Shown piece by piece: positions 8,301-34,652 of a DNA stretch of 64,000 nt. The position numbers and the translations under genes are program-made. Each line of letters starts with the position of its first letter. Position 1 is the first letter of the stretch. Below the pieces are notes generated by a model. That model searched no databases. It was not told the origin of the DNA and was given only the letters and a program-made list of their open reading frames with translations. The stretch comes from Patescibacteria group bacterium (lineage in GTDB: Bacteria; Patescibacteriota; Doudnabacteria; UBA920). Location of the stretch: NCBI GenBank assembly GCA_023484515.1, contig JAMDAY010000028.1, forward strand, positions 2,544 to 66,543, written 5' to 3'.

Positions 8301-8350
8301 CTTACAGCAAGTCTGTAACCGATATTGTTTATTACGTGGCCGGGAAGTAG
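5345..8350 (+). CDS. secreted repeat protein with about ten ~95-aa Ig-like repeats
   Basis: N-terminal signal peptide MKTTILKLGRISGITLVAVLLAWPFGFVKA. The unit YPxxxPxxYYxxPG...GxGFAPNExVxV recurs about 10 times. Confidence 0.7.
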   Translation: MKTTILKLGRISGITLVAVLLAWPFGFVKADGPYLTLSSFSGTPQTIQASGGGWTPGETISIYLGSAVGSPVATAKAGADSFFGPVGITIPANTPQGALPIIGVGSSGGQTASNSFYVTNFYPGINIISSNNTPGSSVTVDGSGFAPAETVTFTLGGQTVGTISAGDSGSFTGFSFIVPNLAPDTYQLHAIGSLSGAEAIAYFYIGGFYPSAAPSVYYLMPGGTLSFSGNNFSPNETVDVSAGNNPDPVSTIIVSSAGDFANAGSYEIPASAIGGIMTFHLKSSKTGTDIPIMVTIGQFNALVSPDNYFLVPGQAIKFYGQGFAPNEKVDVFQNQDSAAVAVIAADKGGGFADAGNLIIPFSDAGRDVTFRFVGQQSNTASAFTVSVGSFNPQITPSEYYLIPGKSFTVWGTGFAPEEEVSVQAGGESDVVVTDKYGVFQTSGPFAAPYSGSDNIRVKAAGLNSGVSADLDIGIGGLYPNIVPDNYYILSGGKINFSGYGFAPNENVTMSDGQDALAVIPTDEYGNFTGQAVTAPFGPDRNVTYKFTGDKSGASAGADIAIAALRPLVSLDSYYATPGSTIYVWGINFSPGETVTVTAGSSTAASLVDKNGVASTTPIVLPFNNSSNTLDVVMTGNTSKASGFAALSLAPFLAQVYPSTYYTAPGTVITFSGSGYAKNEKVNVNFNNSPLGFVNADANGGFNTTKITIPVTASGSANFAFVGAQSNASSSVDIALAPFMPQVSPSAYYTVPGTPVTFTGSGFAPGEEVKIFLNNSPAAAVTADAEGNIASGPVTIPFTAATANFTFSSSVTNYNTVLDIGVGQLNPGIVLSGYYGFGGQPLSINGQGFGGNEKVDITFAGEALGSANTDAAGNFTLNTAVPYAAAGDKAVKAIGESSGAQASATFTEPQAYVNVQLGSYAGAPGSAINFIGSGFLPNEPVEITTDRTGSAAVHTIVADAKGSFNDSGYVVPPNFAEGNLNLAITGTYSKSVTDIVYYVAGK

Positions 8351-9147: not shown

Positions 9148-12030
9148 ATGAAAAAATATTTTATACTATTATTTTTTCTTTTATTGTTTTATTTCCCCAA
9201 AATAACCCATGCAGGAGTGGTTTTAGATACCACTTATGACCCTGTTTCCAACAACTATTGTTTAGACGACGACGGAAATAATATCCATTGCATTTTATAT
9301 GCTTACCGCTTTGATACTGGCCAAGGATACCCTATTCATTCCACCGGGAAACTGGAAAGCATTACCTTAAAGGTTGACTTAATCGGGTTTCCCCTTTTTG
9401 AACCGGAATACGCTAATCGTTATGTGGGAATTAGAATTGACGGTTCAAAAACGTTTTTTCACCGCTGCTATAGCAGGGACATGACTTATGGCGAGATATA
9501 TGCCCGTAATAATTCGTGGGTGGAAGTGACTTTTTATTGCGATCCCAATGACACAATAAATTTTGCCGAAGAAAAACTTGGGGTTATTTATGCCAACGAA
9601 GTTTCCCATCTTCATTTTGCCTTAACCACCCACGATTTAATTACTCCCACTACGCCTCCTTACGGAAATTGCCTTACTGACTATGCCAGCGAATATTACC
9701 ACGAGCCTCCAATTACGGACCGCGATCTTTGGATGAAAATTACTGACACGCCGCAGCAGCCTGCAAAAAACCCGGTATTGCTTATTCCGGGGATAATGGG
9801 CACGGAAATTTATAAAGGATCGGAAAAACTATGGCCAGATGTTAATAGGATGTTTTATTCATCTAGCGATGATTTTTTAAATCCTTTGTCTCTAAACGAT
9901 GGAGGTGTTCCTATATATACAGATGTGGTTTTAGGGGATATTGTAGGAAAGCCTAATACTCTTTTTGATTATAGTCAAGGGTTAATCAACGACCTCAAAT
10001 CCCAATCCTACACCGAAAACCAGACGCTTTTTACTTTTCCTTATGACTGGCGCAAGGAGTTGGGGAGCGTGGCGAACAATGAGCTAAAAAATAAGATTGA
10101 CGAAGTTTTAAATACTGCGTCATCGGCAAAGGTGGACGTTATTGCGCATAGCCAGGGCGGGCTGCTTATTAAGAAGCTGTTATACGACCACCCGGAATAT
10201 CAGGAAAAAATTAACAAAATCATTTTTGTGGGAGTGCCGAATTTGGGAGCGCCAAAAGCGGCCAAGGCCCTGCTTTACGGCGACAGCATGGACATTAGCT
10301 TTTTGGGGATGGGCTTAAACCCCGAAGAGATAAAATTTTTGGCGCACAATATGCCTTCGGTTTACGAATTGCTGCCAAGCGGGGAATATTTTAACCATTC
10401 CGGCGGCTACCTGGGAGCTGCCCAGCCGGCCTGGGTTTCTTTGCTGGATACGGGTAATGTATTTAATTACGAAGCCACCAACCAATATTTAACCGCCCAA
10501 AATTTGAATAACAATTTAATTGTCCAGGCGGCAAATTTTCACCAGCCCGATTACGACAACTTAAGTTTTTCCGGCAGCGGCATTAAAACTTACAATATTG
10601 TAGGCTGCCAGCAGCCGTCGCTGAGCGCGGTTTTGGACCGCGGCAAGGAAAGTCCCCTGTTAAGATACGGTCCGGGCGACGGCACGGTGCCGGTATTTTC
10701 GGCCAGCAATATTCCGGGCGCAACCACTTTTTATGCGTTAAATTCCAACCACGGGGAAATGCTTTCGCAAGAAGGCATCCGCCAGCAAATAGTAAGTTTA
10801 ATTGCCGGCAGCGGGTTGCCGGCCCAAAACGGCATTACAGCCGTCCAGACCGACTGCCGTTTTAACGGCCGCCAAATTTCCGTGCACAGCCCGGTAAATA
10901 TGCATATTTACGATGAAAGCCAAAACCACGTCGGGCTGGACAGCGAAGGGCAAATGGAAATTAACATTCCCGGCGTGCAGTTTGACGCTGTCGGCCACGA
11001 CCAGTATGCCTTTTTGCCCGAAGGCCATTCCTATACGGTAAAGTTGGCGGCTATTGGCAGCGGCAGCTTTGATTTTTATTCCACAATAATCCAAGACAGC
11101 CGGGAAGCTGGCACGGCTTTTTACCATAATATTCCGGTAGCAAGCTCTTCTTTGGCGGAAATTGCGCTGAATGCGGAAAATGACCAAAAAATTTTGTTGG
11201 ATGCAAGCGGCGACGGCGAGGCGAAAACGGAATACGGCCCTTCGGCCAGTTTGGACAGCGAACAAATGCTGGACATAACCGCGCCCGAAACAACCGTTTC
11301 CTTAAGCGGCCAGGCCGGCAAGGAGAACTATTTCCGGAGCAATGTTTCCGTAACTTTGTCCGCGGAAGACCCGGTTGTGTCCGGCAGGGCAAGCCAGGCG
11401 TCAGGGGTTTTGGAAACGGAATACAGCCTTGACTCCGGCCCGGGCTTCCAGGTTTACGCTGCCGGATCTCCCATAGTTGTGGGCAGCGAAGGCAAACACA
11501 AAATAGAATACTATTCCGTGGACAAGGCCGGCAACCGCGAAGAAACAAAAACTTTGGAATTTGTAATAGACAAGACCGCGCCCGAAGCGGTTATGCAATT
11601 TAATTACGACGCCAAAGATTTAATCGTATCCGGGCAAGACAGTCTTTCCTTGCCGGTTGACGCGGTTGACAGCGGCAACAGCGTTACTTTGTCCGACCAG
11701 GCGGGCAATGTTACTATTATTAAATTCAAAGAAAATGACAGGAAGCGCGCGCTTAGCGCGGAAATTGCGGCCATAACTTACAACGGCCGGCCTGCGGATA
11801 TAAGTAAAAACAAACTGGCCTTCTCCTGGAGCCTGGACAAGCAGGGGAATTTAAAACTGTTATCCCAGGACGCCAGGTCAATAAAAGATTTTAACGTGTC
11901 AGCAGTTTATAACGGCAAGCAGACAATAATTAAAGGCAGGGACGAAACCGGAAAAATTAACATTAAGTTTGGTTATCCTGTTTTCTTAAAGGTATTTACC
12001 CGGCAGGGCAGCCTGGGGTGGCAATATTAA
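9148..12030 (+). CDS. secreted alpha/beta-hydrolase (lipase/LCAT-like) with C-terminal beta-rich domains
   Basis: Signal peptide present. VLLIPGIMGTEIY motif and nucleophile elbow AHSQGG are present. Confidence 0.6.
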   Translation: MKKYFILLFFLLLFYFPKITHAGVVLDTTYDPVSNNYCLDDDGNNIHCILYAYRFDTGQGYPIHSTGKLESITLKVDLIGFPLFEPEYANRYVGIRIDGSKTFFHRCYSRDMTYGEIYARNNSWVEVTFYCDPNDTINFAEEKLGVIYANEVSHLHFALTTHDLITPTTPPYGNCLTDYASEYYHEPPITDRDLWMKITDTPQQPAKNPVLLIPGIMGTEIYKGSEKLWPDVNRMFYSSSDDFLNPLSLNDGGVPIYTDVVLGDIVGKPNTLFDYSQGLINDLKSQSYTENQTLFTFPYDWRKELGSVANNELKNKIDEVLNTASSAKVDVIAHSQGGLLIKKLLYDHPEYQEKINKIIFVGVPNLGAPKAAKALLYGDSMDISFLGMGLNPEEIKFLAHNMPSVYELLPSGEYFNHSGGYLGAAQPAWVSLLDTGNVFNYEATNQYLTAQNLNNNLIVQAANFHQPDYDNLSFSGSGIKTYNIVGCQQPSLSAVLDRGKESPLLRYGPGDGTVPVFSASNIPGATTFYALNSNHGEMLSQEGIRQQIVSLIAGSGLPAQNGITAVQTDCRFNGRQISVHSPVNMHIYDESQNHVGLDSEGQMEINIPGVQFDAVGHDQYAFLPEGHSYTVKLAAIGSGSFDFYSTIIQDSREAGTAFYHNIPVASSSLAEIALNAENDQKILLDASGDGEAKTEYGPSASLDSEQMLDITAPETTVSLSGQAGKENYFRSNVSVTLSAEDPVVSGRASQASGVLETEYSLDSGPGFQVYAAGSPIVVGSEGKHKIEYYSVDKAGNREETKTLEFVIDKTAPEAVMQFNYDAKDLIVSGQDSLSLPVDAVDSGNSVTLSDQAGNVTIIKFKENDRKRALSAEIAAITYNGRPADISKNKLAFSWSLDKQGNLKLLSQDARSIKDFNVSAVYNGKQTIIKGRDETGKINIKFGYPVFLKVFTRQGSLGWQY

Positions 12031-20574: not shown

Positions 20575-20919
20575 ATGAAAATAGAAAGATTCGAGGATAT
20601 TATTTCTTGGCAGAAAGGTATTGACCTTGCTATTATTGTTTATGGTGTTCTAAAAAGTAATAGGGATTTAAGTTTTAAAGATCAAATCCAAAGGGCAGTG
20701 GTAAGTATTTCAAACAACATTGCGGAAGGGTATGAAAGAAAAAGCAATAAGGAACTTGCACAATTTTTATATATTGCCAAGGGTTCTGCTGGAGAAGTCA
20801 GGTCCATGGTCCATATGGCTTTGAGGTTAAAATACATTACCCCATCTCAATTTGACGATATCTATCAAAGATGTTTGGAAATTTGTCGGCTACTTTCAGG
20901 TTTTATAAAAACTTTATAG
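20575..20919 (+). CDS. four-helix-bundle protein (23S rRNA IVS-protein / Avd-like, TIGR02436-type)
   Basis: ...AVVSISNNIAEGYERKSNKELAQFLYIAKGSAGEVRS... matches the family signature. 114 aa. Confidence 0.75.
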   Translation: MKIERFEDIISWQKGIDLAIIVYGVLKSNRDLSFKDQIQRAVVSISNNIAEGYERKSNKELAQFLYIAKGSAGEVRSMVHMALRLKYITPSQFDDIYQRCLEICRLLSGFIKTL

Positions 20920-22665: not shown

Positions 22666-22908
22666 TTGTCTTCCCAAGAACAGTTGTCAATGCTGACTTC
22701 GGGCAAGCTGATTTCCATCAGCCAGGCCGCGACTTTAACTCCGTATAGTGCGGAGTATTTGAGTTTATTGGCCCGCAAGGGGAGACTGAATGCGATAAAA
22801 ATTTCCCGCGACTGGCTGACTACGGAAGAGGCGGTTAAAAATTACGTGGCCAAGCAGGTCAAGAAGCACGAAAAAATGCTCAAGATGCTGGAAGGAGGAA
22901 AAATATGA
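22666..22908 (+). CDS. excisionase-like helix-turn-helix DNA-binding protein (paralog A)
   Basis: TPYSAEYLSLLARKGRLNAIKISRDWLTTEEAVKNYVAKQVKKHEKML is nearly identical to the 31916-32146 product. HTH_17-like pattern. Its stop overlaps the start of the giant gene (ATGA). Confidence 0.6.
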   Translation: MSSQEQLSMLTSGKLISISQAATLTPYSAEYLSLLARKGRLNAIKISRDWLTTEEAVKNYVAKQVKKHEKMLKMLEGGKI

Positions 22909-25900
22909 AATCCTTCCTGCAAAAAATTGGGAATGCCTTGGGGTTAAGGCAGCAGCCCGTGGTGATTAACGCGAAGTTTATTACTCCCCAAAGCCTGAAA
23001 GAAAATTCCAAACCGGCAGCTCCGGCCTTTGCGGCTGCGCCCCGCGTCCCGGAGTCCCGGATCCCGGACAAAAACAAAACTGCGCCGCTTGCCCGCCAAA
23101 CCGCCAAGAGCGCGCCTATGGCCAAATGGATCGGAAAAATTCCCAGGCCGAAATTCGTTTTGGCCGTGCCCAAGCCGCACCGCGCTTTGGCAGTTGTGCT
23201 GGCCAAAACGTCAGTCGTTCCGTTTAAGCTGCCGCAGTTGCCCGCGCCCCTAAAAAACAAAATGCTGGCTAAATTGCCTAACCGCGTTTTGGCGGGTTTG
23301 GCTGTGCTGCTGTTTGCCTTAAGCATGTCCTTGTGGGGCGCGGCCAAAGAGATACAGATAAAGCATGCGGTTCCCGCAGGGGTCAACTCCGGAATCCTGA
23401 AATCTTTGTCGTTCAGTATCCCTAATAATTTTTCAAACAACGGGCATTCAGGCAGCTCTGTTTCAGCGGCTGGCCAGCGCATTTATCAGCGCCCATTTGG
23501 CAAATACGAAAATTTGCCGGCCAAAGAAAAAGCAGTATTTTATCCAAGCAACGACAACCTTCATTTGCTGTCGTTGTTTACCGGCGGCATTGGCAACTGG
23601 TTCGGATATTTTGGAGGATTGCGGGCAGAGTATGCGCCGTATAAATACGCAGCGCAAAATAATTCAAAAGGCGAAGCGGTTAGCCGCCATGCGGATTTAG
23701 TAAAAGGCAGGGATTCTGAATTTGTTGGCCAGGCGGGCGGGGCCCCTAAGCTGCCAGTTGGGACAATAAATTTTTCAGCCAGGCTGCAAGCGGTTAAAAT
23801 TTCCGCCCGCACGCTGGCTTTGGTTTGGACGGATTTTCTGTTCCGCCATCCGGCCATAAATTTTGCAAGCCTGCAAAGCGCGGCCCAAAATTGGAAGACG
23901 GACATTAGCCGGTCGCTTAAGACAGGCGTTGCCGCTTTTGCCGGCGTGGGCAAATCGGACGCGCAAATTTGGGGGCAAGCTTTAACCTGGCAAATAAGCG
24001 TCCGGAAAAATTTGCCGGAAGCGGCAGACAGCCAACGCGTTGCCAGCCAGGATACAATTGCACGTTATTTTGTAACATTGCAAAACTTTAACTTAAAGGC
24101 GAAGCAGTCTTTTGCTGAAATAAAGACTGCCGCGGTTTCATATTTTAAAGTTAAAGATATTAATTTCCGCAATGACGCGGCAAGCGGCCGCGTCCAAAAG
24201 GGAGAAGTCTTGGGCGCGGTAGACTATCCCGCCGGCCAGGAATCAAAATTTATAAAAATTTTCACCAATGGAGTAGGGGAGTGGTTTAAAATTTTGCCCG
24301 ATGTAAAATATTCGGAGGCTAATCAACAGCAAAAAGCCGGCAAAGGCATGGTGCTGGGCTTGTCGTCCGCCAAGGAGAACAATTCTTCTACCGTGGGCAG
24401 TATTTCCTTAAATCGGCTGGCGCAAAAGAGCTTGCAAGGACTTAATAATGCGGCAGCCTGGGAAACAAGGCAGTTGGTAAAGTTGGCAAATTTTGGAAAA
24501 GTCGCAGCCAAAGGGGTGGGAAAAGTTTGGGGGCAGGTTGCCGGCGCGGGAAAAGGCGCCTGGAACCGCGCGGTGGCAACGGCAGGACATATTTTGCAGA
24601 CCGGCAGCGAAGAAAATGTTTTGCCTTTAATTACGCATGACAAGTTTGGGCAAATGGTGGGGAACAATGGGCCGGCAGGCAATGGCGAAGCCGCGAACTT
24701 AAATTCCCAAACGCCGCAAACCGGTCCAGAGGCCGGGCATTCGGCAGCCGCCATTTCCCAACCGGCAGGCGCGCCCAACGCGGGCAGCGGCAGGCCGGCG
24801 TCTGCAGCCGTTTTAACGGCCGTTGACCCCATGTTTGTTAACCGGCTAATTGACGCGCGGCTTAACCAGTATTTGGCCGAAGGCAAATTTAAAGGCGAAA
24901 AGGGCGAAAAAGGAGACAAGGGAGACAAGGGGGACACCGGCTTAATTACTAACCCCGCAACCAACCAGTCTTCCGCGGTTGTGGGCGGCTATCCCATTGT
25001 CACTTATGTTCCTCCGGTTCCCGCCCAGGGATTTGCCGGCACTTCTTTGGCGGGCTTTGGCAATTTGTCCGCTGCAATTTTGTCAGTCTCTGACCAGACA
25101 AGCTTAAACAATCTTACTGTTACCGGCAATGTCAGTTTGGCTACCACGACCGTTACCAGTTTGACTATTGCCAGGATAAATCCGCAATTCACCGCCGGCT
25201 CTGTTGTTTTTCAAGGATCTTCCGGCCTGGCCCAGGACAACAGCAACTTCTTTTACGATGAAACTAACCATAGATTGGGAATTGGCACCAGCACTCCGTT
25301 AACCGTGTTGGAAATTGACGCTACGGACGCTTTGCGCATTCCGGTGGGCAACACCGCGCAGAGGCCGGCCGTGGCTTTAACCGGCCAAATCCGCTATAAC
25401 CTGACCACGCACCAGTTTGAGGGTTACGGCAACAATAGCGTCTGGCAGGGTTTGGGCGGGGTTATTGATGCCGACCAGGACACTTACATTACGGCGGACA
25501 CGAGCAATGCCGACGAAGATACCTTGCGCCTGTTCACTTTGGGCAACGAGCGCTTGACCGTGACCAGCGCCGGCAATGTTGGCATTGGCACGACCACGCC
25601 GGGCTATGCCTTAACCGTGGTTGGCGACGGTTACTTTACGGGCAATGTTAACATTGGCCAAAACTTGACCGTAAATGACGGGGCGGTAATCATTGGCAGC
25701 GCTACCACGACCAGCCTGACCGTAAATGCGGCCATTGCTTCCAATTTAATTCCCGATGGCAACAATACCAGAAGCTTGGGGAGCGCTTCCTATTTCTGGA
25801 GCGATTTATACGTGGGCGAGTTGCATGCCAACTTGATTTCCGACGCCTCTTCCACTTTAAGCGGCACGCTTTCCGACAGCTTTACCATTAACAGCGACAA

Positions 25901-28900
25901 TGCCAGCGCCGATGCCGAAAACGCGGATTTAATCTTCTTCCGCGGCGCCTCCGGGGCAGACCCTAACGCCTTAATTTCCTGGAATTCTACAGCCAAGCGC
26001 TTTGACTTAAACCAGCCAACTTTTATCCAGAACGCCTCGCCTTCCACCACAACCATTCCAACTTTGCTGCTTCAAGGCTCTGTCAGCCAAACCGCGGATA
26101 TTTTCCTCGCAGCCTCTTCCTCCGGCACTTCCTTGTTTAATATCACTTCCTCCGGCAACGTCGGGATAGGGACGACGGCACCAAGCCAGTTGTTGACGGT
26201 TGGTAATAACAATCAGTTTACGGTTAGTAGTTCTGGTGCAGTTGTGGCCGCTGGGCAGATTCAAGCCAATTCACTTTATACTCTCGGAAATGTGTATGGG
26301 TACGGTTTCCAAAGTGTTAATGGACCCTCGCAATCTTACATTGACATGACAAGTTATAGTAAAGCTATAGCATTTTCAGCCAGTTCCACAGAGGTAATGA
26401 GGTTAACAGGAAACGGCAATATCGGCATCGGCACCACATCGCCAGCGAACAAGCTAACGGTGGTTGATGCGGATACAACCTCCCCGGCGGGGATAGGTTC
26501 GATTAAGCTTACCCAGAATATTTCAAATCCTTACGAATTATTTATGGGTGTCAACAGCACCTATGACAACAACGAAGGAAACGGAGCCGCGTATATACAG
26601 GCGCAGCATTCGGGGGTGAATGTTTCCGGTCTGCTGCTTAACCCGAACGGAGGCCGCGTGGGCATTGGGGTGCTTCATCCTCAATCCGCGTTGGATGTCA
26701 ATGGCGGAATGAGTATTGGTTCTTACGCCGGAACCAACACGGCTCCATCGAATGGATTAATAGTAAGCGGCAATGTGGGCATCGGGACAACAAGTCCGGC
26801 GGCGAAGTTGGATGTCGTTACTTCCAGTAATAATGAAATGAGGTTTTTGGACCAGATGACCTATGGTACTGCAAGCAGCAGCAATGCCACCGGATTGTTT
26901 CTGACCACTCCAACTTATAATAACGGCGGCGGACCGTCTATTGCTTTCGGCCGCGGCACAGGAATCAATGCTACGGAAATGTGGGAGACCGGCATAGACT
27001 ATCGCGGCGGCGGCAATTTGTGGAGCGGCGGCGGAGCGGGCGCATATATTTTAGCCTATCAATGGGAACCCAACGGCCAGTCGGCGGACCGCATCGCCGT
27101 CAAACCTTACGGCCAAACTTCTATTGGTCTGCCGGATGCCGGCTTGAGCCAGTTTACTGCCCAGTTAGAAATTAGAAATCAAATAGCTAGTTTGCCAGTG
27201 GAGATTCTTTACCCCAATTTGACCCAAAGCGGCGATGTCTGGCAGGTACGCACTACGAACAATGGTTCGTCGGCCATTTCTATACCTTCCGGCGCTGTGG
27301 ACGCTTCCAACGCTAACGCTATCGTTCCAATTTTAAGATTAATGCATCCCTCCGCTGCTAGCGGCGTCGGTAATGGCGCAGCCATTGATTTTGTCGCCTC
27401 TTCCGATGGCACGACCATTGGATCAGAAATCGCCGGGACGCGCGCGGCTTCAGGGGGCTGGGGTAACTTGCAGTTTTTGACTCGCAACGGTTCGGGTCTT
27501 TTGGAACGCATGAGGATAGATAATAACGGCAACGTCGGGATTGGGACAACAGGTCCCACATCGGCATTAGAGGTTACGTCTGGCTCTGGAAATGCTTCTG
27601 TAAAATTAAGTTCAAATGCTTATGGCGGAGTAATAAGTACTGCCTCGGGCAGCAATAGCGGATACTTGTATCTAACGCCAGTCGGACGGGTGGTTAGCTT
27701 GTACGATAATACCAACGCTTATAAATTGAATATTTATAACGGCAGTAATGCTGAGTTTTCGTTTGATTCAAACGGCAATAGCTGGTTAAACGCAACCACC
27801 GGCAACGTGGGCATCGGGACGACGAGTCCTGGGGCAAAGTTGCATGTATATGGGACAGATTATACCGGTGCCATTTTTCAAAACACCAATCCTGCCAATT
27901 TTGGGTATAACCAGTTTACTAACGCTGGTGCGGCCACTTCGTATCAATACTGGTTTGGTAATACGTATAGTTCTGCAACGAATAGGTATGTTCCATCATC
28001 ATTCTTGCTCGACGCAGCAGGGACAGGCGGTTTAGGTTTGGCCGCTTCAAATGCTTCTGGGGCTATTCGCTTTTATACTGGTGGGGATAATGAAAGGGTC
28101 AGGATAGATAATAACGGCAACGTCGGGATTGGGACGACGAGCCCAAGCACTAAGTTAGAAGTTTGGGATGGCAATGATGGTTCTGGCGGAGTTATTACTG
28201 CCAAGGACGGCGGAGCTATATTAATGGCCGCTGATAGTAGCTATCCGTTGCAAGTTGGAAATAACACCGGAGGCGCCAATAATATTAGATTCCGTATCGG
28301 ATCGGATGGCACTATTGATTGGAACAACAATAACAGTGCTATTCCCACGATAACTTTGCCGACAAACAAATATCTGGCAGTATCGGGTGGAAATGGAATG
28401 ACAATAGCTGGCAACGTCGGAATTGGGACGATAAATCCGGCGGAATTGCTTGATGTGGCAGGTAACATCCGGCTGACAAACTTTAGGACCCATAATGTTA
28501 CCAGGACTTTAAGTTCTGCTATTAACGGGGTGGTAGATATTGGCACCTTCAACTTCACGTTGGGCGCGGGGGAGTTGGACGTAACCATAGTCACGCAAGG
28601 CACAGGCTACTCTATTGCTAAAACTTACAGAATCCCGGTCAGATATGATGCTACAAGCAATGCTTGGAAAATTGTATTGCCTAATTACGATTCCGGAGTA
28701 TATTCTGGAAATAATTTCCAACTGGAGGTTAAAGTCGGCACTACGAATGCCTCTTTGCGTATTCGCTCGTTGACTGCCAATTCAGCGACCGCTTATATTA
28801 CCATCCAGCAAAATGGCTTGAATAGCGACAGTTTTACCGAATCCACAGCCACTTCCACCGAGGCGGCTATTACCCAGACTTATACTTACACCCCGGTTGC

Positions 28901-30632
28901 ATTTTATAACGGTAATCTGGGAGTGCAAGTTGCCGCGCCAGATGCTGAATTGCAGGTAAATTCAATGCCTGTAAACAAGGGTTCTTATTCATTGTCAAAC
29001 TGGAACAGTACCGGCTCCAGAGCCGCTGCGTTTTTTGCCACGCCGAATAACAACGGGGGCAACAGCTTGGCCAGCGCGGAACCGGCTTTGATCTTGGGCA
29101 GGGAGGGTGTAACAGGCCAATCTTATGCCAATTTTGCGGAATTTAAACTGGCACATTACGAAGTTTCGGGCACAGACGCCCGTACCAGGATGGATATTGC
29201 TTTGACACACGGAGCGGGCGATGCAGCCGGAACTAACGTTATGAGCTTGCTAAGCAACGGCAACGTCGGGATTGGCACTACCTCTCCTTCCCAAAAGCTG
29301 GATGTCTGGGGCAATTTGAACGTCGCTACGTCAACTACGCCTGCATTGTTTGTGAACACAGCCACGGGAATGGTGGGAATTGGAACCGCGACGCCTGGGC
29401 ATCTTATTACACTTTCCGGCGGCGCTTATAGCGACGGCGCGACTTGGGAAAACGCTTCGGACGTAAACTTAAAGGAAAACTTTATTGACCTTGACCCGGC
29501 GGAAATTTTAACCAAGATAAATTCCTTAAAAGTCAGCCAGTGGAATTATAAGACGGACAAGAGCATCTCCTATATTGGCCCGACCGCCCAGGACTTTTAT
29601 TCCACATTTAACGCCTTGCGCCCCAGCAGCTCGCCGACCTCCATTTCCACGGTGGACCCGGCAGGCGTTGCATTGTTGGGAATACAGGCTTTGGACAATA
29701 AATTCAACAATTTACAATTGACGATCAGTAATTTACAGGGAAGCCTGATGAATCAGGCAACTACGACTAATCTTGCTGTTTATAACCCTTCCAACTTCTC
29801 GGGCGACAGCGTGGGCCAGGCCAAAATTTTGTCCGGCGCGACCAGCACTTTGGTTTCCTTCCAAAACGCCTACCAATACCAGCCCATAGTTACCCTAACT
29901 CCGGCCGGCCCTTACACCGCCCGCTACTGGGTGGAAAACGCCAACGCAAACGGCTTTACCGTAGTTTTGGAACACGCGGAAGAATACGACGTTACCTTTA
30001 ACTGGCATTCGTTTGCCAGCCCCGAAGCGAAATTAACGGTCAGCGACGGCACCACGCTGGACATTGTTTTGGTTTTGCCGCCGGCCGACCCGCCGCCTCC
30101 GGCCGCGCCTTTGGTGGTGCAGCCTGCGGCGGGGGACGCTACAGGCGGCTCTGCCGGTAGCAATCTTACAGACACTAATCCTCCTGCCGGAGGCGCAGAT
30201 GGTTCTTCCGGCGACAACCTTTCTCCGGACGACTCTTCTAACAACAGCCTTTCCGGCGACAACCTTCCCGCAGGGGATCTCTCAGGAAATACTTCCGGCA
30301 ATAATCCTCCCGCAGACAGCCTTTCCGGCGGTAATCTTACAGACATTAATCCTCCGGCAGGGGATGGAACAGGGGAAGGCGATCCGTCCGCTGATGGGTC
30401 TGCTTCTTCCGGCCAGCAAGGCCAGGTTTCCGGCGCAACCACAATTTCGGGCGATTCCACTTCGGCAAGCACTGAAACTGCATCCGGCGGCGACAGTTCT
30501 GCCGCCGGCAGCGATTCGTTGTCCGGCAGCGGTTCGGGCCCTACAGATACCTCTGCCGGTGTAGATGCCTCCACCGGCGCCACAGACGCATCCGCCGGCA
30601 CTACGGACGCCTCTTCCGGAAGTACACCGTAA
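22905..30632 (+). CDS. giant cell-surface tail-fibre-like protein: TM anchor, collagen-like GEKGEKGDKGDKGDTG, ~11 NVGIGTT repeats, Peptidase-S74 intramolecular chaperone domain, P/S/G/D-rich tail
   Basis: GGAGG RBS upstream. Repeated GNVGIGTTSP..KL.V units. The C-terminal SDVNLKENFIDLDPAEIL...YIGPTAQDF matches the S74 autoprocessing-domain motifs (SDxxLKxNI, GxxAQ). Confidence 0.85.
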   Translation: MKSFLQKIGNALGLRQQPVVINAKFITPQSLKENSKPAAPAFAAAPRVPESRIPDKNKTAPLARQTAKSAPMAKWIGKIPRPKFVLAVPKPHRALAVVLAKTSVVPFKLPQLPAPLKNKMLAKLPNRVLAGLAVLLFALSMSLWGAAKEIQIKHAVPAGVNSGILKSLSFSIPNNFSNNGHSGSSVSAAGQRIYQRPFGKYENLPAKEKAVFYPSNDNLHLLSLFTGGIGNWFGYFGGLRAEYAPYKYAAQNNSKGEAVSRHADLVKGRDSEFVGQAGGAPKLPVGTINFSARLQAVKISARTLALVWTDFLFRHPAINFASLQSAAQNWKTDISRSLKTGVAAFAGVGKSDAQIWGQALTWQISVRKNLPEAADSQRVASQDTIARYFVTLQNFNLKAKQSFAEIKTAAVSYFKVKDINFRNDAASGRVQKGEVLGAVDYPAGQESKFIKIFTNGVGEWFKILPDVKYSEANQQQKAGKGMVLGLSSAKENNSSTVGSISLNRLAQKSLQGLNNAAAWETRQLVKLANFGKVAAKGVGKVWGQVAGAGKGAWNRAVATAGHILQTGSEENVLPLITHDKFGQMVGNNGPAGNGEAANLNSQTPQTGPEAGHSAAAISQPAGAPNAGSGRPASAAVLTAVDPMFVNRLIDARLNQYLAEGKFKGEKGEKGDKGDKGDTGLITNPATNQSSAVVGGYPIVTYVPPVPAQGFAGTSLAGFGNLSAAILSVSDQTSLNNLTVTGNVSLATTTVTSLTIARINPQFTAGSVVFQGSSGLAQDNSNFFYDETNHRLGIGTSTPLTVLEIDATDALRIPVGNTAQRPAVALTGQIRYNLTTHQFEGYGNNSVWQGLGGVIDADQDTYITADTSNADEDTLRLFTLGNERLTVTSAGNVGIGTTTPGYALTVVGDGYFTGNVNIGQNLTVNDGAVIIGSATTTSLTVNAAIASNLIPDGNNTRSLGSASYFWSDLYVGELHANLISDASSTLSGTLSDSFTINSDNASADAENADLIFFRGASGADPNALISWNSTAKRFDLNQPTFIQNASPSTTTIPTLLLQGSVSQTADIFLAASSSGTSLFNITSSGNVGIGTTAPSQLLTVGNNNQFTVSSSGAVVAAGQIQANSLYTLGNVYGYGFQSVNGPSQSYIDMTSYSKAIAFSASSTEVMRLTGNGNIGIGTTSPANKLTVVDADTTSPAGIGSIKLTQNISNPYELFMGVNSTYDNNEGNGAAYIQAQHSGVNVSGLLLNPNGGRVGIGVLHPQSALDVNGGMSIGSYAGTNTAPSNGLIVSGNVGIGTTSPAAKLDVVTSSNNEMRFLDQMTYGTASSSNATGLFLTTPTYNNGGGPSIAFGRGTGINATEMWETGIDYRGGGNLWSGGGAGAYILAYQWEPNGQSADRIAVKPYGQTSIGLPDAGLSQFTAQLEIRNQIASLPVEILYPNLTQSGDVWQVRTTNNGSSAISIPSGAVDASNANAIVPILRLMHPSAASGVGNGAAIDFVASSDGTTIGSEIAGTRAASGGWGNLQFLTRNGSGLLERMRIDNNGNVGIGTTGPTSALEVTSGSGNASVKLSSNAYGGVISTASGSNSGYLYLTPVGRVVSLYDNTNAYKLNIYNGSNAEFSFDSNGNSWLNATTGNVGIGTTSPGAKLHVYGTDYTGAIFQNTNPANFGYNQFTNAGAATSYQYWFGNTYSSATNRYVPSSFLLDAAGTGGLGLAASNASGAIRFYTGGDNERVRIDNNGNVGIGTTSPSTKLEVWDGNDGSGGVITAKDGGAILMAADSSYPLQVGNNTGGANNIRFRIGSDGTIDWNNNNSAIPTITLPTNKYLAVSGGNGMTIAGNVGIGTINPAELLDVAGNIRLTNFRTHNVTRTLSSAINGVVDIGTFNFTLGAGELDVTIVTQGTGYSIAKTYRIPVRYDATSNAWKIVLPNYDSGVYSGNNFQLEVKVGTTNASLRIRSLTANSATAYITIQQNGLNSDSFTESTATSTEAAITQTYTYTPVAFYNGNLGVQVAAPDAELQVNSMPVNKGSYSLSNWNSTGSRAAAFFATPNNNGGNSLASAEPALILGREGVTGQSYANFAEFKLAHYEVSGTDARTRMDIALTHGAGDAAGTNVMSLLSNGNVGIGTTSPSQKLDVWGNLNVATSTTPALFVNTATGMVGIGTATPGHLITLSGGAYSDGATWENASDVNLKENFIDLDPAEILTKINSLKVSQWNYKTDKSISYIGPTAQDFYSTFNALRPSSSPTSISTVDPAGVALLGIQALDNKFNNLQLTISNLQGSLMNQATTTNLAVYNPSNFSGDSVGQAKILSGATSTLVSFQNAYQYQPIVTLTPAGPYTARYWVENANANGFTVVLEHAEEYDVTFNWHSFASPEAKLTVSDGTTLDIVLVLPPADPPPPAAPLVVQPAAGDATGGSAGSNLTDTNPPAGGADGSSGDNLSPDDSSNNSLSGDNLPAGDLSGNTSGNNPPADSLSGGNLTDINPPAGDGTGEGDPSADGSASSGQQGQVSGATTISGDSTSASTETASGGDSSAAGSDSLSGSGSGPTDTSAGVDASTGATDASAGTTDASSGSTP

Positions 30633-30715
30633 GAAATAGGACATATAAGACAAATAAGACAAATAGGACATATAAGACCTATAGGACTAATAGGACTAAT
30701 AAAACCAATAAATTT
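30633..30715. repeat. 9-bp minisatellite (ATAGGACAA / ATAAGACAA units) upstream of the 208-aa Avd-like gene
   Basis: Tandem units read directly. Translates to SYL/SYM runs on the minus strand. Confidence 0.8.
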
Positions 30716-31342
30716 ATGACAGAATTAATCGCCAAGCACGGCGGCTACAAAAACTTAAAATCTTTCCAGGCGGCGGAAATTGTTTACGACTACACCTTTG
30801 AATTCATTAACCGCTATGTCCAATTTTACAAAGACAAGGAGCAAATGGAAGGCGCGGCGCGCGGCGGCAAGCAGAACATCGGCGAAGGCAGCCAGACCGG
30901 CGGCACCTCCAGGCAAAGCGAAATTAGGCTGACAGATGTCGCCCGCGCCTCGCTGGAAGAACTGAAGCTGGATTACGAAGATTTTTTGCGCAAACAAAGC
31001 CTGCCGCAATGGGGCAAAAACGACCCGCGCGCGCTAGCCGTGCGCAAGCTGGCATACGAAAAGAATAGGACATATGGGACTTATAGGACATATATGTCAG
31101 AGCCAGAAACAGCGGCCAACTGCGCCTTGTGCTTAATTAACCAGGCAACTTATTTACTGGACAAACAACTGGCGGCGTTAGACAAGCAGTTAGGGCGGGA
31201 GGAGGACTTTAAAGAGCGTTACAGGCAAGTCCGCAAGGAACAAATATTCGGAGCAAAAGACGACTATGATGAATTTTTAAAGCAGTTTGGCAAGAAACGG
31301 CTGGAAAACGGGAGGGTGGTGCCGCTGGATGCGCCGGATTGA
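30716..31342 (+). CDS. extended four-helix-bundle (Avd-like) family protein
   Basis: QNIGEGSQ...VARASLEELKLDYEDFL parallels the NIAEGxxR...IAKGSxxEL motifs of TIGR02436. Repeat units also lie inside the ORF at 31060-31095 (RTYGTYRTYM). Confidence 0.45.
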   Translation: MTELIAKHGGYKNLKSFQAAEIVYDYTFEFINRYVQFYKDKEQMEGAARGGKQNIGEGSQTGGTSRQSEIRLTDVARASLEELKLDYEDFLRKQSLPQWGKNDPRALAVRKLAYEKNRTYGTYRTYMSEPETAANCALCLINQATYLLDKQLAALDKQLGREEDFKERYRQVRKEQIFGAKDDYDEFLKQFGKKRLENGRVVPLDAPD

Positions 31343-31560
31343 ACAAGGTGAATAGGACAAATAGGACGCATAGGACAGATAGGGCAGAGGGGCAAGGCCT
31401 ATGCGACCAGTAAGACGAATAGGACGTATAAGAACAATAAGACAAATAGGACATATAGGACATATAAGACAAATAGGACAAATAGGACAAATAGGACATA
31501 TAAGTCCTATAAGACCTATAAGTCCTATAAAGACCTATAACCTATAAAACCAAAACAGCC
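31343..31560. repeat. 9-bp minisatellite array, forward units then inverted units (self-palindromic)
   Basis: ataggacaa... followed by gtcctataagacctataagtcctat. Confidence 0.8.
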
Positions 31561-31915: not shown

Positions 31916-32146
31916 ATGGCCTCCCCTAACTTACAATTAATTTCCGGCGCGCTTATCTCCATGCATCAGGCAGCAAAAATGACCCCGTATTCGGCGGAGT
32001 ATTTAAGCTTGCTCGCGCGCAAGGGGAGGCTAAAGGCGGTAAAAATCGGCAGGGACTGGCTGACCAATGAAGAGGCAATTAAGGAATACGTGCAAAAGCA
32101 GGTCAAAAAGCACGAAAAAATGCTGGCGGCATTGGGAAAACTATAA
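31916..32146 (+). CDS. excisionase-like helix-turn-helix DNA-binding protein (paralog B)
   Basis: TPYSAEYLSLLARKGRLKAVKIGRDWLTNEEAIKEYVQKQVKKHEKML. Paralog of 22666-22908. Confidence 0.6.
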   Translation: MASPNLQLISGALISMHQAAKMTPYSAEYLSLLARKGRLKAVKIGRDWLTNEEAIKEYVQKQVKKHEKMLAALGKL

Positions 32147-32149
32147 AAA

Positions 32150-32197
32150 ACGGATTTACACGGATACCGTCAAACGGATGCTCACGGATCACGGATA
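32150..32197. repeat. array of 5 ACGGAT hexamers (left flank of the GxxExxY cassette)
   Basis: cggatttacacggataccgtcaaacggatgctcacggatcacggata. Confidence 0.75.
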
Positions 32198-32217
32198 AAA
32201 TACATATGTAAAAATAT

Positions 32218-32654
32218 ATGGACAGTAAAGAAAAAGGGAAATTATTAGAAGAAGGATTGTGTTCAAATATTATTCGGGCGTTTTATGATGTTGCAAATAA
32301 ATATGGCAGCGGTTTAAAGGAAATTGTTTACCAAAAAGCCTTGGTTGAAATTTTGGAAAAAATGGGGCTAAAAACTGAACAGCAAAAAAGATAAGCATTT
32401 ATTCCCTTGATTCAGGGAAAACACTGGGAACATATGTGCCGGATTTAATAGTAGAAGGCAAGGTTGTTGTAGAAATTAAGGCTACCGATTATACAATTGG
32501 CCGCAATATTAATCAACAAAGGTCTTATTTAAAAGCCAGTAAGTATGAAATTGGATACCTGGTAAACTTTGGAACCCCTAGATTATTTTTTAAGAGATCA
32601 ATTTATACCAACGACCGCAAACCGTTTATTATATTATTAACCAATCATCCGTGA
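32218..32654 (+). pseudogene. GxxExxY-family protein gene split by a frameshift in an A6 run (32384-32389)
   Basis: The N-terminal ORF 32218-32394 contains GLKEIVY. The C-terminal ORF has DLIVEGKVVVEIKA...YLVNFG. Adding one A restores a single ~145-aa ORF. Confidence 0.55.
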
Positions 32655-32693
32655 TCCGTGGAAATCCGTAAGCAGTATCCGTGTTTATCCGTT
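32646..32693. repeat. array of 5 ATCCGT hexamers (right flank, inverted relative to 32150-32197)
   Basis: catccgtgatccgtggaaatccgtaagcagtatccgtgtttatccgttt. Confidence 0.75.
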
Positions 32694-33935
32694 TAAATAT
32701 GTCATTTATCGCCAGAAACAAATTCCTAAACAAATATTTGCCCTTAATTCTTTCCGCCATATTGCTTGTTACCGCGTATGGGGCTTATTTTGTCGCACAA
32801 AAATCCAAAACCGCAGAGTCTGCCTGGTTTACTTCTTCTTCCACTGCCGGTACCTGGAACTACCGGCAAAGAATTGTCATTGACCACACCAAGGTCGGGT
32901 AATCGTTAAAACAAAATTTAACCGATTTTCCGGTTTTGGTTTCCACGACCAATGTGCTGTTTAAGTCCGTAAACAACGGGGGACATGTGGGGTTAGACAG
33001 CGGCTACGACATTGTCTTTACCTCCGCGGACGGCGCCACCAAACTAGCGCACGAAATAGAAAAATACGACCCCGCAACCGGCCAGCTAATTGCCTGGGTT
33101 AAAACCAATTTATCTTCGTCTTCCGACACCGTCTTGTATCTTTACTACGGCAACTCTTCCGCCCCCGACATGCAAACCGTAGATCCGGTTAAGACTGCGG
33201 TCTGGGACAGCAACTATAAAGGCGTCTGGCATCTTGGAGAAACCGGCAGGGGCATCAGGCGATTATAAAGACAGCACAACAAATAATAGTAATAGCATCA
33301 GTACTGCTAGCCAGCCTTCCGCGGCTGCCGGCAAAATAGGTAACGCGCAAAATTTTAACAATTCCTACATCCAATTTGACGGTTCAGGCTCCTTAAATAT
33401 TTATTCCAGCCCCATAACCATTGAGGCCTGGATTAAGCCGACAACGCTTGACGCCACGCTTAGGGCGGTAGTTGATAAAGGGAGTGCTACTTATTTAATG
33501 GGGGTCTCCAGTTATCCAAGCACGGGCCATGCCAATACTTTCAGTATTAGCGGAAGCGGGGGGAGTGGTAATTATGTCGCACCTCAAAATTCTATAAGTA
33601 CGGGGGTATGGTATCATTTAGTTGTACAAGGTATAAATAATCCAAAATGGTATGCCAACGGAGCGTATTTAGGGTACTACGATACCCTTATGACCTTGAT
33701 TTCTAATACCGATGTTCTTTCCATTGGCGATAACTCCTTGCATACCCGCAAGTTTAGCGGATTAATTGAGGAAGTCCGCATTTCCAACATAGCCCGCACC
33801 CCCGAATGGATTAAAACCGAATACAACAACCAGTCCGCGCCCTCTGCTTTTTACGCGATTTCCGCGTCCAACGCTTCCTCCCGCCCCGCTGACAAGCCCC
33901 TCATCAAAACCCGCTCCGGCGTGAAGTTCCGCTAA
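32681..33935 (+). pseudogene. DUF2341 + LamG/concanavalin-like surface protein gene, disrupted by an in-frame TAA (32903) and a frameshift (~33240)
   Basis: Signal/TM present. WNYRQRIVIDHTKVG*...FPVLVSTT...DIVFTSADG...YYGN...VWHL matches DUF2341. The third ORF has GKIGNAQNFNNSYIQFDGS...EAWIKP (LamG). Confidence 0.55.
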
Positions 33936-33948
33936 TGAAAACAAAAAA

Positions 33949-33985
33949 CAATGGGCACCATTGTGCTGCACAATGGTGCCCATTG
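33949..33985. repeat. REP hairpin caatgggcaccattgtg-ctg-cacaatggtgcccattg, immediately upstream of RAYT-1
   Basis: 17-bp perfect arms. Confidence 0.8.
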
Positions 33986-33998
33986 TAACCAGCTTAAT

Positions 33999-34652
33999 AT
34001 GAATAACCGGGATTATAAATTTTTTGCGCCCAATACAATCCATCATGTATACAACCGCGGAAATGGTAAAATGGATATTTTTAGGGACGGACAGGATTTT
34101 GCAAATCTGATTAAAAGAATAGCTTTAACTTTAGGCAAGGCGAAAGAGACCGCAACGGTGCCCATTGGCTGCCAATGGGCACCGTTGCGTATTGCGCCTT
34201 TTCCAAAGAACGCTTTTACCATACTGTGTTATTGCCTTATGCCTAACCATTTTCACTTCCTTATCAGGCAGAATACTGAAATTGCGATAAGTGATTTTAT
34301 TTCAAAACTTTGCAGTAGCTATGGTAAATTTTTTAATAAAAAATACGAACACGCTGGCGGCTTGTTCCAAGATCAGTTTAAAGCTGTGCGCGTTGAAAAT
34401 GATTCCCAGTTACTGTGGGCATCCGCCTACATCCACAACAACCCCAAAACCGCCGGACTTGTCCAAAAGTTGGAAGATTATGCCTGGAGCAGTTATTTGG
34501 ATTATATCGGCAAGCGGCAGGGAACTTTGTGCGACAAGGAATTTATTTTAAAGATGATCGGCGGCGCGGAAAAGTATAAAAGATTTACGGAAGGCGGCTT
34601 TGAAAAAATCAAGGGGAGAAAAGAATTGGAACATTTGCTGCTGGATAATTAA
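33999..34652 (+). CDS. REP-associated tyrosine transposase (RAYT, IS200/Y1 HuH family), copy 1
   Basis: HHVYNRGN and YCLMPNHFHFLI (HuH) motifs. The start was chosen at MNNRDYK by alignment to copy 2. An internal REP hairpin at 34151-34189 is translated as TATVPIGCQWAPLRIAP. Confidence 0.8.
   Translation: MNNRDYKFFAPNTIHHVYNRGNGKMDIFRDGQDFANLIKRIALTLGKAKETATVPIGCQWAPLRIAPFPKNAFTILCYCLMPNHFHFLIRQNTEIAISDFISKLCSSYGKFFNKKYEHAGGLFQDQFKAVRVENDSQLLWASAYIHNNPKTAGLVQKLEDYAWSSYLDYIGKRQGTLCDKEFILKMIGGAEKYKRFTEGGFEKIKGRKELEHLLLDN
34151..34189. repeat. REP hairpin cgcaacggtgcccattgg-ctg-ccaatgggcaccgttgcg, inside the RAYT-1 ORF
   Basis: 18-bp perfect arms. Shares the ggtgcccattg core with the upstream hairpin. 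Confidence 0.8.

Follow-up and report, generated by a model that had tools for sequence, protein, structure and literature searches.

A giant phage-tail-fibre-like protein from a patescibacterial chromosome, with a predicted lectin-like domain downstream of its Peptidase_S74 chaperone

An intact gene of 2,575 codons was found in a 64,000-nucleotide stretch of DNA (the window) from an uncultured Patescibacteria group bacterium of the Doudnabacteria (contig JAMDAY010000028.1, positions 2,544 to 66,543 of the forward strand). This gene probably encodes a homotrimeric surface adhesin of the Patescibacteria (the candidate phyla radiation, or CPR) that has the build of a phage tail fibre, is related, as a cellular protein, to the S74-class mosaic adhesive trimers (MATs) of Bdellovibrio bacteriovorus, and sits in a two-gene cassette with a small helix-turn-helix (HTH) gene. 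MATs are chromosomally encoded, surface-exposed, phage-like trimeric fibres (Caulton et al. 2024, PMC10769870). The gene product, referred to below as the giant protein, is identical in sequence to NCBI entry MCL5667077.1, named "tail fiber domain-containing protein", which lies on a 78,048-bp contig of a metagenome-assembled genome and is a singleton at 90% identity clustering. Its open reading frame (ORF) at 22905..30632 on the plus strand is uninterrupted, and by our own estimate the chance of such a frame staying open is ~(61/64)^2575, or ~1e-54.

Tail-fibre families in PHROGs match the giant protein with E-values of 3.5e-36 and 1.2e-27, and 12 GIGT or GIGV motifs were counted between amino acids 792 and 2158, 11 of which fit the pattern G[NMR][VI]GIG[TV]. 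In a sequence search of the Protein Data Bank (PDB), the shaft matched the MAT fibres Bd2133 (8ond, E=2.5e-7), 8ojn, 8oml and 8ol4, all of which are solved MAT members that do not belong to the S74 class (PMC10769870). The capping loop of the MATs, for which the same report gives the consensus V-G-G/N-pi-x-x-P-x-x-x-L, reads NVGIGTTxPxxKL in the giant protein. Homology of the shaft to the Bdellovibrio fibres is strongly supported by these comparisons of sequence. A first-pass annotation made from the DNA letters had proposed an organisation like that of a phage tail fibre, with NVGIGTT repeats, an S74 chaperone domain and an N-terminal membrane anchor, encoded by a chromosomal gene outside any prophage tail module, and each of these proposals was borne out by the searches described here.

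The Peptidase_S74 domain lies directly C-terminal to the capping-loop repeats, that is, to the part homologous to solved trimeric MAT fibres. Pfam Peptidase_S74 (PF13884) matches amino acids 2185-2235 with 32.4 bits (E=1.2e-7) against a gathering score of 22, and the match spans model positions 1-53 of 58. The Ser/Lys dyad is intact, with S-D-x-x-x-K at the start of the domain; it aligns to the motif of MYRF, and both columns are kept in relatives. When a profile of the C-terminal module was compared with the PDB, it retrieved the MYRF ICA domain (7dc3, E=6.5e-6), a phage tail fibre (7y5s), phi29 gp12 (3gud) and 6f45. The Pfam model describes only the first ~50 residues of the chaperone, which would be completed by a helix that AlphaFold2 predicts at amino acids ~2249-2280. 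An S74 domain with an intact dyad is therefore strongly supported by domain and profile matches. Because the dyad is intact, self-cleavage is predicted, and the scissile bond would be Ala2184|Ser2185, giving products of 226.9 kDa (2,184 aa) and 39.0 kDa (391 aa, pI 4.05). Of the 21 MATs, 13 have a terminal S74 domain that bears SDxxxK, and one of the fibres, Bd3182, is reported to cleave itself at the Ser of the motif, a reaction that is blocked by the S782A substitution (PMC10769870).

Beyond the Pfam S74 match the giant protein runs on for 340 aa. The first-pass annotation had described this extension as rich in P, S, G and D; its last 182 residues are indeed low in complexity and dominated by S, G, A and D, and the residues before them comprise the remainder of the chaperone (~50 aa) and a predicted 106-aa beta-sandwich that had been missed. 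This post-S74 domain (TNLAVYNPSNFSGDSVGQAKI...YQYQPIV...GFTV...FNWHSFA...LTVSDGT..IVLVLPP) is conserved more strongly than any other part of the protein: across 13 sequences, 20 columns are invariant, with S12, D14, Y36, Q39, W80 and H81 (domain numbering) among the invariant residues, and the mean column identity is 61%. It is covered by no Pfam or NCBIfam model: Pfam H_lectin gave no sequence match, amino acids 2285-2415 matched nothing in Pfam at E<=5, and a search of the PDB with a sequence profile of the domain returned nothing.

AlphaFold2 models the post-S74 domain as a six-strand beta-sandwich with a confidence (pLDDT) of 77.9 and a core above 90. The top Foldseek matches in the PDB are the agglutinins of Helix aspersa and Helix pomatia and SLL-2 (TM-score 0.49-0.55 under both normalisations, E ~3e-3), followed by tailspike heads at the C-terminus (cyanophage Pam1, phi297 and Sf6), discoidin II and the R2 pyocin fibre. 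In the BFVD viral library there were 7 matches at E<=1e-3, with many at TM-scores of 0.5-0.59, all of them heads of tail fibres or tailspikes; several slightly weaker matches (E ~1e-3 to 4e-3) are named "H-type lectin domain". The modelled domain thus resembles H-type lectins consistently in fold, and because Pfam H_lectin gives no match this resemblance is to be read at the level of fold and not as membership of the family. The predicted fold also matches the trimer-forming heads of phage receptor-binding proteins. In tailspikes such as that of P22, the C-terminal domains matter for the assembly of the trimer. In phage fibres, S74 domains and lectin-like or beta-sandwich heads are alternative C-termini (RBPseg atlas, PMC12143355), and the same is reported of S74 and beta-sandwich tips in the MATs (PMC10769870). 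No description of the tandem order of S74, lectin-like head and acidic tail was found in the literature searched, and this order sets the post-S74 family apart from phage fibres and MATs.

To define this family, a profile of the post-S74 domain was run with HMMER in an exhaustive search of 1.84 billion cluster representatives, which returned 2,793 proteins at E<=1e-3, 637 at E<=1e-10 and 83 at E<=1e-30. Details of architecture were taken from the best 150 of the 2,793 proteins, and 16 loci were inspected. Among these 150 proteins, which reach 5,397 aa in length, the domain lies close to the C-terminal end. An S74-type motif precedes it in 98 of the 127 members with enough upstream sequence (~77%), at a median distance of 107 aa and in variants that include SDxxLK, STRxTK and SSxRYK; Pfam confirmed the S74 domain in three members with variant motifs, at 26.7-42.2 bits. 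In the other ~23% the domain occurs without a recognisable S74. In 136 of the 150 the domain is followed by 40 aa or more of low-complexity tail; these tails carry a net negative charge without exception, with a median of -13. The fragment that would be released has a median length of 299 aa across the family (range 181-465), and that of the giant protein (391 aa) is among the five longest of 98. A hydrophobic segment at the N-terminus is present in 66, and a collagen run in 18, of the 82 members that look full-length. An acidic tail and a large fragment are therefore the rule in this family, and the first-pass view of both as unusual did not survive the comparison; they are unusual only when set against the canonical chaperones of phages or Bdellovibrio (~140-155 aa).

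In a minority of members, a region of the type GRVPVKV..G.I..GD.L..S..PG.AMKA....GQALE takes the place of S74 before the post-S74 domain. It is carried by proteins P0242, P0230, P0263, P0157 and P0256 and is present at loci L010 (8225-14266) and L018 (7374-10523); at L010 it ends an HTH-coupled giant that has no post-S74 domain. Peptidase_G2, the other family of auto-cleaving chaperones, was considered for this region and dropped when Pfam gave no match.

A genome scan placed the module in Saccharibacteria, Doudnabacteria and Acidobacteriota (Bryobacterales, Terracidiphilus). The combination of S74, post-S74 domain and acidic tail is common to Patescibacteria (loci L001, L002, L004 and L007) and Acidobacteriota (L003, L005, L006, L008 and L009) at 33-59% identity, and L005 has a fused HTH as well. 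Mis-binning is unlikely for one Bryobacterales copy, as it lies on a 4.37-Mb contig. The sharing of the module between unrelated phyla, judged by sequence identity, points to horizontal exchange. No phage copy that might have served as a vector was found: a tblastn search of 50,697 phage genomes (INPHARED) gave no relative, and no contig in IMG/VR encodes the post-S74 domain.

Conservation along the giant protein itself is confined to two blocks. BLASTP against relatives in reference genomes, nine in all and either full or partial, showed conservation in the neck (28-47% identity) and the C-terminal module (amino acids ~2105-2414, 33-59% identity) alone, and the N-terminal 630 aa, the tail and the shaft inserts at amino acids 811-1040, 1305-1515 and 1892-1996 had no counterpart in any of the nine. 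A mosaic of lineage-specific inserts on a constant assembly module is strongly supported by these alignments, and this is the pattern that one would expect of a recognition protein whose assembly part stays the same. If the ratio of residues to length in Bd2133 (370 aa over ~142-150 Angstrom; PMC10769870) is applied to ~1,485 aa of the giant protein, the mature fibre would measure ~60 nm, a figure to be taken as an order of magnitude.

At the other end of the protein, a very basic segment (24 K+R versus 3 D+E in amino acids 1-127), predicted for that reason to be cytoplasmic, is followed by the sole strong hydrophobic segment, which contains the highest Kyte-Doolittle 19-residue window of the protein (2.09). 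The distribution of charge is positive-inside and supports an orientation with the N-terminus in the cytoplasm. The region next to the membrane, amino acids 148-640, had no homologue at E<=1e-3 among 5.8 billion proteins, its sub-regions had no match in Pfam or NCBIfam, and it gave no high-scoring segment pair with any of the 9 relatives; the search for homologues was likewise empty for the N-terminal 660 aa, amino acids 1-127 included. The neck that follows, with its coiled coil and its collagen-like run, has the same arrangement of helix and collagen in L001, L002 and L009. Its collagen-like run, which the first-pass annotation had singled out, is real and keeps its position in relatives, and with six triplets it scores 13.5 bits with Pfam Collagen (PF01391), under the cut-off of 27.2 for a collagen domain. 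The protein is repeat-rich and contains no cysteine.

The start of the giant gene at 22905 is supported by a Shine-Dalgarno sequence (GGAGGA), by the ATGA overlap with the preceding gene and by the same call at NCBI. Shine-Dalgarno sites of the GGAGG type, there with TAATG overlaps, are also present at L016 and L017. A start at Met120, which would turn the anchor into a classical signal peptide, was judged unlikely, as it has no Shine-Dalgarno sequence and stands against that of ATG 22905, the conserved overlap with the HTH gene and the NCBI call.

The 80-aa product of the overlapping gene, which contains …ISISQAATLTPYSAEYLSLLARKGRLNAIKISRDWLTTEEAVKNYV…, is identical to a "helix-turn-helix domain-containing protein" of the same contig at NCBI. 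Pfam HTH_17 (PF12728) spans 49 of 51 model positions in it and, with 19.1 bits, falls short of the gathering score of 27. Giant proteins with this domain fused to their N-terminus, ahead of the transmembrane helix, are found at L002 (Saccharibacteria; 26.1 bits over nearly the whole model) and L005 (Terracidiphilus; 19.0 bits over the C-terminal 37 positions), and a precomputed PF12728 match exists for five members of the HTH family. A profile search of the PDB with this family gave nothing significant. In total 83 relatives were detected, mostly free-standing, of ~82 aa and with 15 invariant columns. At all seven independent loci sampled (7/7), the small HTH gene abuts or overlaps the start of a gene for a large protein that is anchored at its N-terminus and has 1,049 to >2,347 aa, in neighbourhoods of housekeeping genes (L19/TrmD, NusA/ClpP, IMPDH, DnaK/J, RpoC). 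The giants at L014, L016 and L017 end in S74, post-S74 domain and acidic tail, and that at L018 has a divergent copy of the post-S74 domain. The pairing is not universal: the N-termini at L001 and L009 are complete and have no HTH, and only 4 of the 82 full-length members of the post-S74 family carry a fused HTH motif.

Coupling of HTH and fibre in one translationally coupled two-gene unit is strongly supported by the gene order and the fusions, so the unit begins at 22666 and not at 22905, where the first-pass annotation, exact for the giant ORF (22905-30632), had placed it. As a conservative guess, the HTH protein is a transcriptional autoregulator. Judged by the fused proteins, the HTH lies on the cytoplasmic side and is tethered to the membrane. 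A release of the HTH by S74 cleavage in the manner of MYRF was considered and rejected on topology. It is conceivable, if doubtful, that HTH, transmembrane helix and fibre, split or fused, make up a contact-sensing device comparable to ToxR, a membrane-associated winged-helix regulator, with the ~60-nm fibre as its sensor. It is likewise no better than a long shot that engagement of a host, or S74-dependent maturation, would be relayed through the transmembrane helix and the basic tail to the HTH and switch gene expression.

A second HTH-like paralogue of 76 aa is encoded downstream of the giant gene, at 31916-32146 on the plus strand. Next come a small gene in two fragments that lie in different frames (32218-32394 and 32436-32654) and then a gene for a surface protein with a transmembrane segment and a Laminin_G_3 domain, which has been split in three (32681-32902, 32936-33268 and 33234-33935) through a single in-frame stop and a single frameshift. 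The stretch 31916-33935 looks like a decaying second cassette of HTH and anchored surface protein.

The giant gene is chromosomal and its surroundings are cellular. TrmB, UvrB, tRNA-Ala, RuvA, FemAB and a Mur ligase are encoded upstream, and an ABC transporter, RpoB, RpoC, an aminoacyl-tRNA synthetase and TsaD downstream. When 40 ORFs, which take in the substantial ones of the 64 kb, were scanned with Pfam, housekeeping and mobile-element genes alone came up, with no phage structural gene for baseplate, tail tube, tape measure, capsid, portal or terminase in the window. A non-prophage context is strongly supported by this gene content. Scans for promoters and terminators gave results no better than chance. 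Repeats within the DNA of the giant gene are old and diverged (60-88% identity) and show no sign of a phase-variation cassette or of recent duplication.

Taken as a surface adhesin, the giant protein would be made and matured as follows. A single N-terminal signal anchor would insert the polypeptide with its N-terminus inside, as hydropathy and charge suggest, and ~2,430 aa would be exported by a Sec-type route. The C-terminal module of S74, lectin-like sandwich and acidic disordered tail would emerge last, trimerise and template the folding of the triple beta-helix from C- to N-terminus, a direction proposed here because it is established for S74 chaperones. Ser2185 and Lys2190 would then cut Ala2184|Ser2185 and free an acidic fragment of 391 aa and 39 kDa per chain, and the 2,184-aa fibre would stay anchored in the membrane with its tip newly exposed. 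The mature fibre (~60 nm) would present its inserts and its tip to a structure on another cell's surface; the most plausible such cell is the host of this presumed episymbiont. The sandwich and the acidic tail may form an extended trimerisation or solubility part of the disposable folding module, and this is the weakest step of the scheme.

A number of points weigh against this scheme. Cleavage, trimerisation, surface exposure and binding are all steps that we infer, and the fold of the chaperone rests on its sequence matches, as the monomer AlphaFold2 model of the S74 part is poor (pLDDT <50), though it does include the expected long C-terminal helix. Adhesion to a host is an ecological argument from the lifestyle of the CPR, and the family is also present in free-living Acidobacteriota. 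The scheme gives no part to the 490-aa proximal region or to the HTH partner. A lectin-like head is also an odd thing to find after the cleavage site if that part is merely discarded; the domain is the best conserved of the protein, which suggests a function of its own, and its role cannot depend strictly on S74 when ~23% of members have no recognisable S74.

These last points bear on a possible, though not likely, alternative in which the post-S74 domain is a real functional head. It would either remain attached to the tip, with S74 acting only as a trimerisation clamp, or be released as a soluble trimeric lectin (3 x 39 kDa, with its acidic tail) that binds, for example, a glycan of the host or of the cell's own wall. 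The fold matches to carbohydrate-binding H-type lectins and to heads at the distal end of phage tailspikes and tail fibres and of the R2 pyocin fibre speak for such a head, as do its 20 invariant columns, its presence without S74 in part of the family and the use of lectin-like heads as receptor-binding tips in phage fibres (PMC12143355). Set against this, the Ser/Lys dyad is kept wherever S74 is present, which argues that cleavage occurs; an identity of 33-59% from Saccharibacteria to Acidobacteriota is unlike a host-specific receptor binder; and Pfam H_lectin gives no match, with modest E-values for the fold (~3e-3 in the PDB).

It is improbable that the giant protein is instead a structural component of the envelope, for instance a fibre associated with the S-layer, a spacer or a matrix protein, which sets surface architecture or the spacing of cells rather than recognising anything. 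A giant, cysteine-free, repeat-rich protein with an N-terminal anchor would suit that role, the family occurs in Acidobacteriota, which are not known as episymbionts, and nothing identifies a ligand; yet the closest characterised relatives, the Bdellovibrio MATs, are prey-recognition adhesins, and lineage-specific inserts on a constant assembly module are typical of receptor-binding proteins. A tail fibre gene of an integrated or decayed prophage, or one recently transferred from phage to cell and without a cellular role, is very improbable despite the strong PHROGs matches, the NCBI name and the distant mobile-element genes of the window (IS200-like at 33951-34652 and 46710-47390, serine recombinase at 57681-59015), since the 64 kb contain no gene for capsid, portal, terminase, tail tube or baseplate, the neighbours are core housekeeping genes, a membrane anchor with a 127-aa cytoplasmic tail is useless to a phage fibre, neither the 50,697 phage genomes nor IMG/VR held a relative, and the HTH-giant cassette stands between housekeeping genes at seven other loci.

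Read as an adhesin, the giant protein bears on a question about the CPR at large, as the way in which these ultra-small bacteria recognise and hold their hosts is largely unknown. Attachment to hosts has been ascribed in the literature to type IV pili and to a few adhesins with VCBS, dockerin or FN3 domains. Some CPR lineages would, on the present evidence, carry membrane-anchored relatives of the Bdellovibrio prey-recognition fibres, which makes these proteins candidate determinants of host range. The unannotated C-terminal module, found in at least 2,793 clusters, places a lectin-like head and an always acidic tail downstream of a self-cleaving chaperone, and the current model of S74, which treats the chaperone as a disposable piece at the end of the chain, does not account for the order of S74, head and tail. 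The coupling of HTH and fibre, occasionally as a fusion, is newly uncovered here as conserved.

Table 1. Features of the HTH-fibre unit, in positions of the window
Feature	Position	Strand	Remarks
HTH_17-like gene (excisionase/MerR-type winged-helix), 80 aa	22666..22908	+	TTG start; TGA overlaps ATG of giant gene (ATGA)
Shine-Dalgarno sequence GGAGGA	22894..22899	+	5 nt before ATG 22905; read from sequence
Giant fibre gene	22905..30632	+	2,575 aa, 265.9 kDa; ATG start, TAA stop
Predicted cytoplasmic N-terminal segment, aa 1-127	22905..23285	+	pI 11.9; rich in P, A and K
Single transmembrane/signal-anchor helix, aa 128-147 (VLAGLAVLLFALSMSLWGAA)	23286..23345	+	Predicted from hydropathy
Membrane-proximal ectodomain, aa 148-640	23346..24824	+	Orphan region; no homologues
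Conserved neck, aa 641-810	24825..25334	+	Short helix, collagen-like run, first beta-helical segment
Collagen-like run, aa 664-681	24894-24947	+	Six G-X-Y triplets
Beta-helical fibre shaft and tip, aa 792-2184	25278..29456	+	12 (G)NVGIGTTxPxxKL capping-loop motifs
Peptidase_S74 intramolecular chaperone, aa 2185-2287	29457..29765	+	Pfam and profile matches
Catalytic Ser2185 codon	29457-29459	+	SDVNLK motif
Lys2190 codon	29472-29474	+	SDVNLK motif
Conserved post-S74 domain, aa 2288-2393 (106 aa)	29766..30083	+	Predicted beta-sandwich, H-type-lectin-like fold
Acidic low-complexity tail, aa 2394-2575 (182 aa)	30084..30629	+	S/G/A/D-rich; no K/R; 23 D+E; pI 4.05

Several other features of the window were recorded. 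Two arrays of 9-bp tandem repeats (AAATAAGAC / TAAGACATA) at 30634-30711 and 31411-31551, with 8.7 and 14.3 copies, flank a gene for a "four helix bundle suffix domain" protein (30716-31342) related to the 23S rRNA-IVS protein, and on the minus strand they give rise to odd shadow ORFs that read MSYLSYLSY; a further 23S_rRNA_IVP gene is found at 20575-20919. Both IS200-like Y1 transposase genes match Pfam Y1_Tnp, the first lying directly after the broken Laminin_G_3 gene and the second after an aminotransferase gene. The large serine recombinase (Resolvase, Recombinase and Zn_ribbon_recom domains) and a RhuM/Fic-domain gene at 3639-4652 are possible remnants of mobile elements, each far from the fibre gene. 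Two further ORFs may encode secreted or surface proteins, namely 5345-8350 (1,001 aa, weak IPT/TIG match) and 9148-12030 (960 aa, LCAT-like lipase domain). An ORF of 104 aa at 20954-21268 matches only positions 31-84 of the TsaD profile and may be a truncated TsaB/TsaD-like gene or a fragment; the full-length TsaD gene, at 50587-51714, is 30 kb away.

Of the known systems, the MATs stand closest to the giant protein (PMC10769870). Both are chromosomally encoded, phage-like, beta-helical surface fibres of bacteria living on other bacteria, with the trimeric state and surface location predicted for the giant protein; they share homology in the shaft and its capping loop, an S74 domain with SDxxxK near the C-terminus and a mosaic build with swappable parts. 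MATs have a cleavable signal peptide and a conserved beta-rich N-terminal domain of ~130 aa, whereas the giant protein has a 127-aa cytoplasmic tail, a transmembrane anchor, a 490-aa orphan region and a collagen neck. In the MATs as reported, S74 is terminal (with a fragment of ~140 aa in Bd3182) and beta-sandwich tips substitute for it and do not follow it, and the available text of that report describes no HTH partner gene. With 660 N-terminal residues that have no detectable homologue, and with this different layout, strict membership of the giant protein among the MATs is unlikely.

Phage fibres and tailspikes such as the K1F endosialidase, T5 pb1 and phi29 gp12 (MEROPS S74) have in common with the giant protein a triple beta-helical shaft, collagen-like or coiled-coil segments and a C-terminal Ser-Lys chaperone that nucleates trimer folding and then cuts itself off, the latter being predicted for the giant protein. 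They differ in that the giant protein has no virion or prophage context, carries a membrane anchor in place of a baseplate-attachment domain, continues for 288 aa past its chaperone with a folded domain and an acidic tail, and has no phage relative detectable by sequence. MYRF, whose ICA domain (7dc3) is the best PDB match to the S74 module, is likewise a membrane protein with a non-terminal S74, and it has a DNA-binding-type domain on the same chain, as do the fused relatives L002 and L005. In MYRF, however, one side of the membrane has both the DNA-binding domain and S74, and cleavage sets the transcription factor free, whereas in the fibre proteins the S74 domain would be outside, ~2,000 aa from a cytoplasmic HTH, so that cleavage cannot release it.

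The H-type lectins, finally, are not matched by the post-S74 domain in sequence, either through Pfam H_lectin or in the PDB, and the domain differs from them in its position between a predicted self-cleavage site and an acidic disordered tail. What its model has in common with the Helix pomatia and Helix aspersa agglutinins, SLL-2 and the C-terminal domain of discoidin, and equally with the heads of phage fibres and the R2 pyocin, is the six-strand beta-sandwich, at TM-scores of ~0.5-0.59 over 72-99 residues, a fold that in those lectins and heads belongs to trimer-forming domains.

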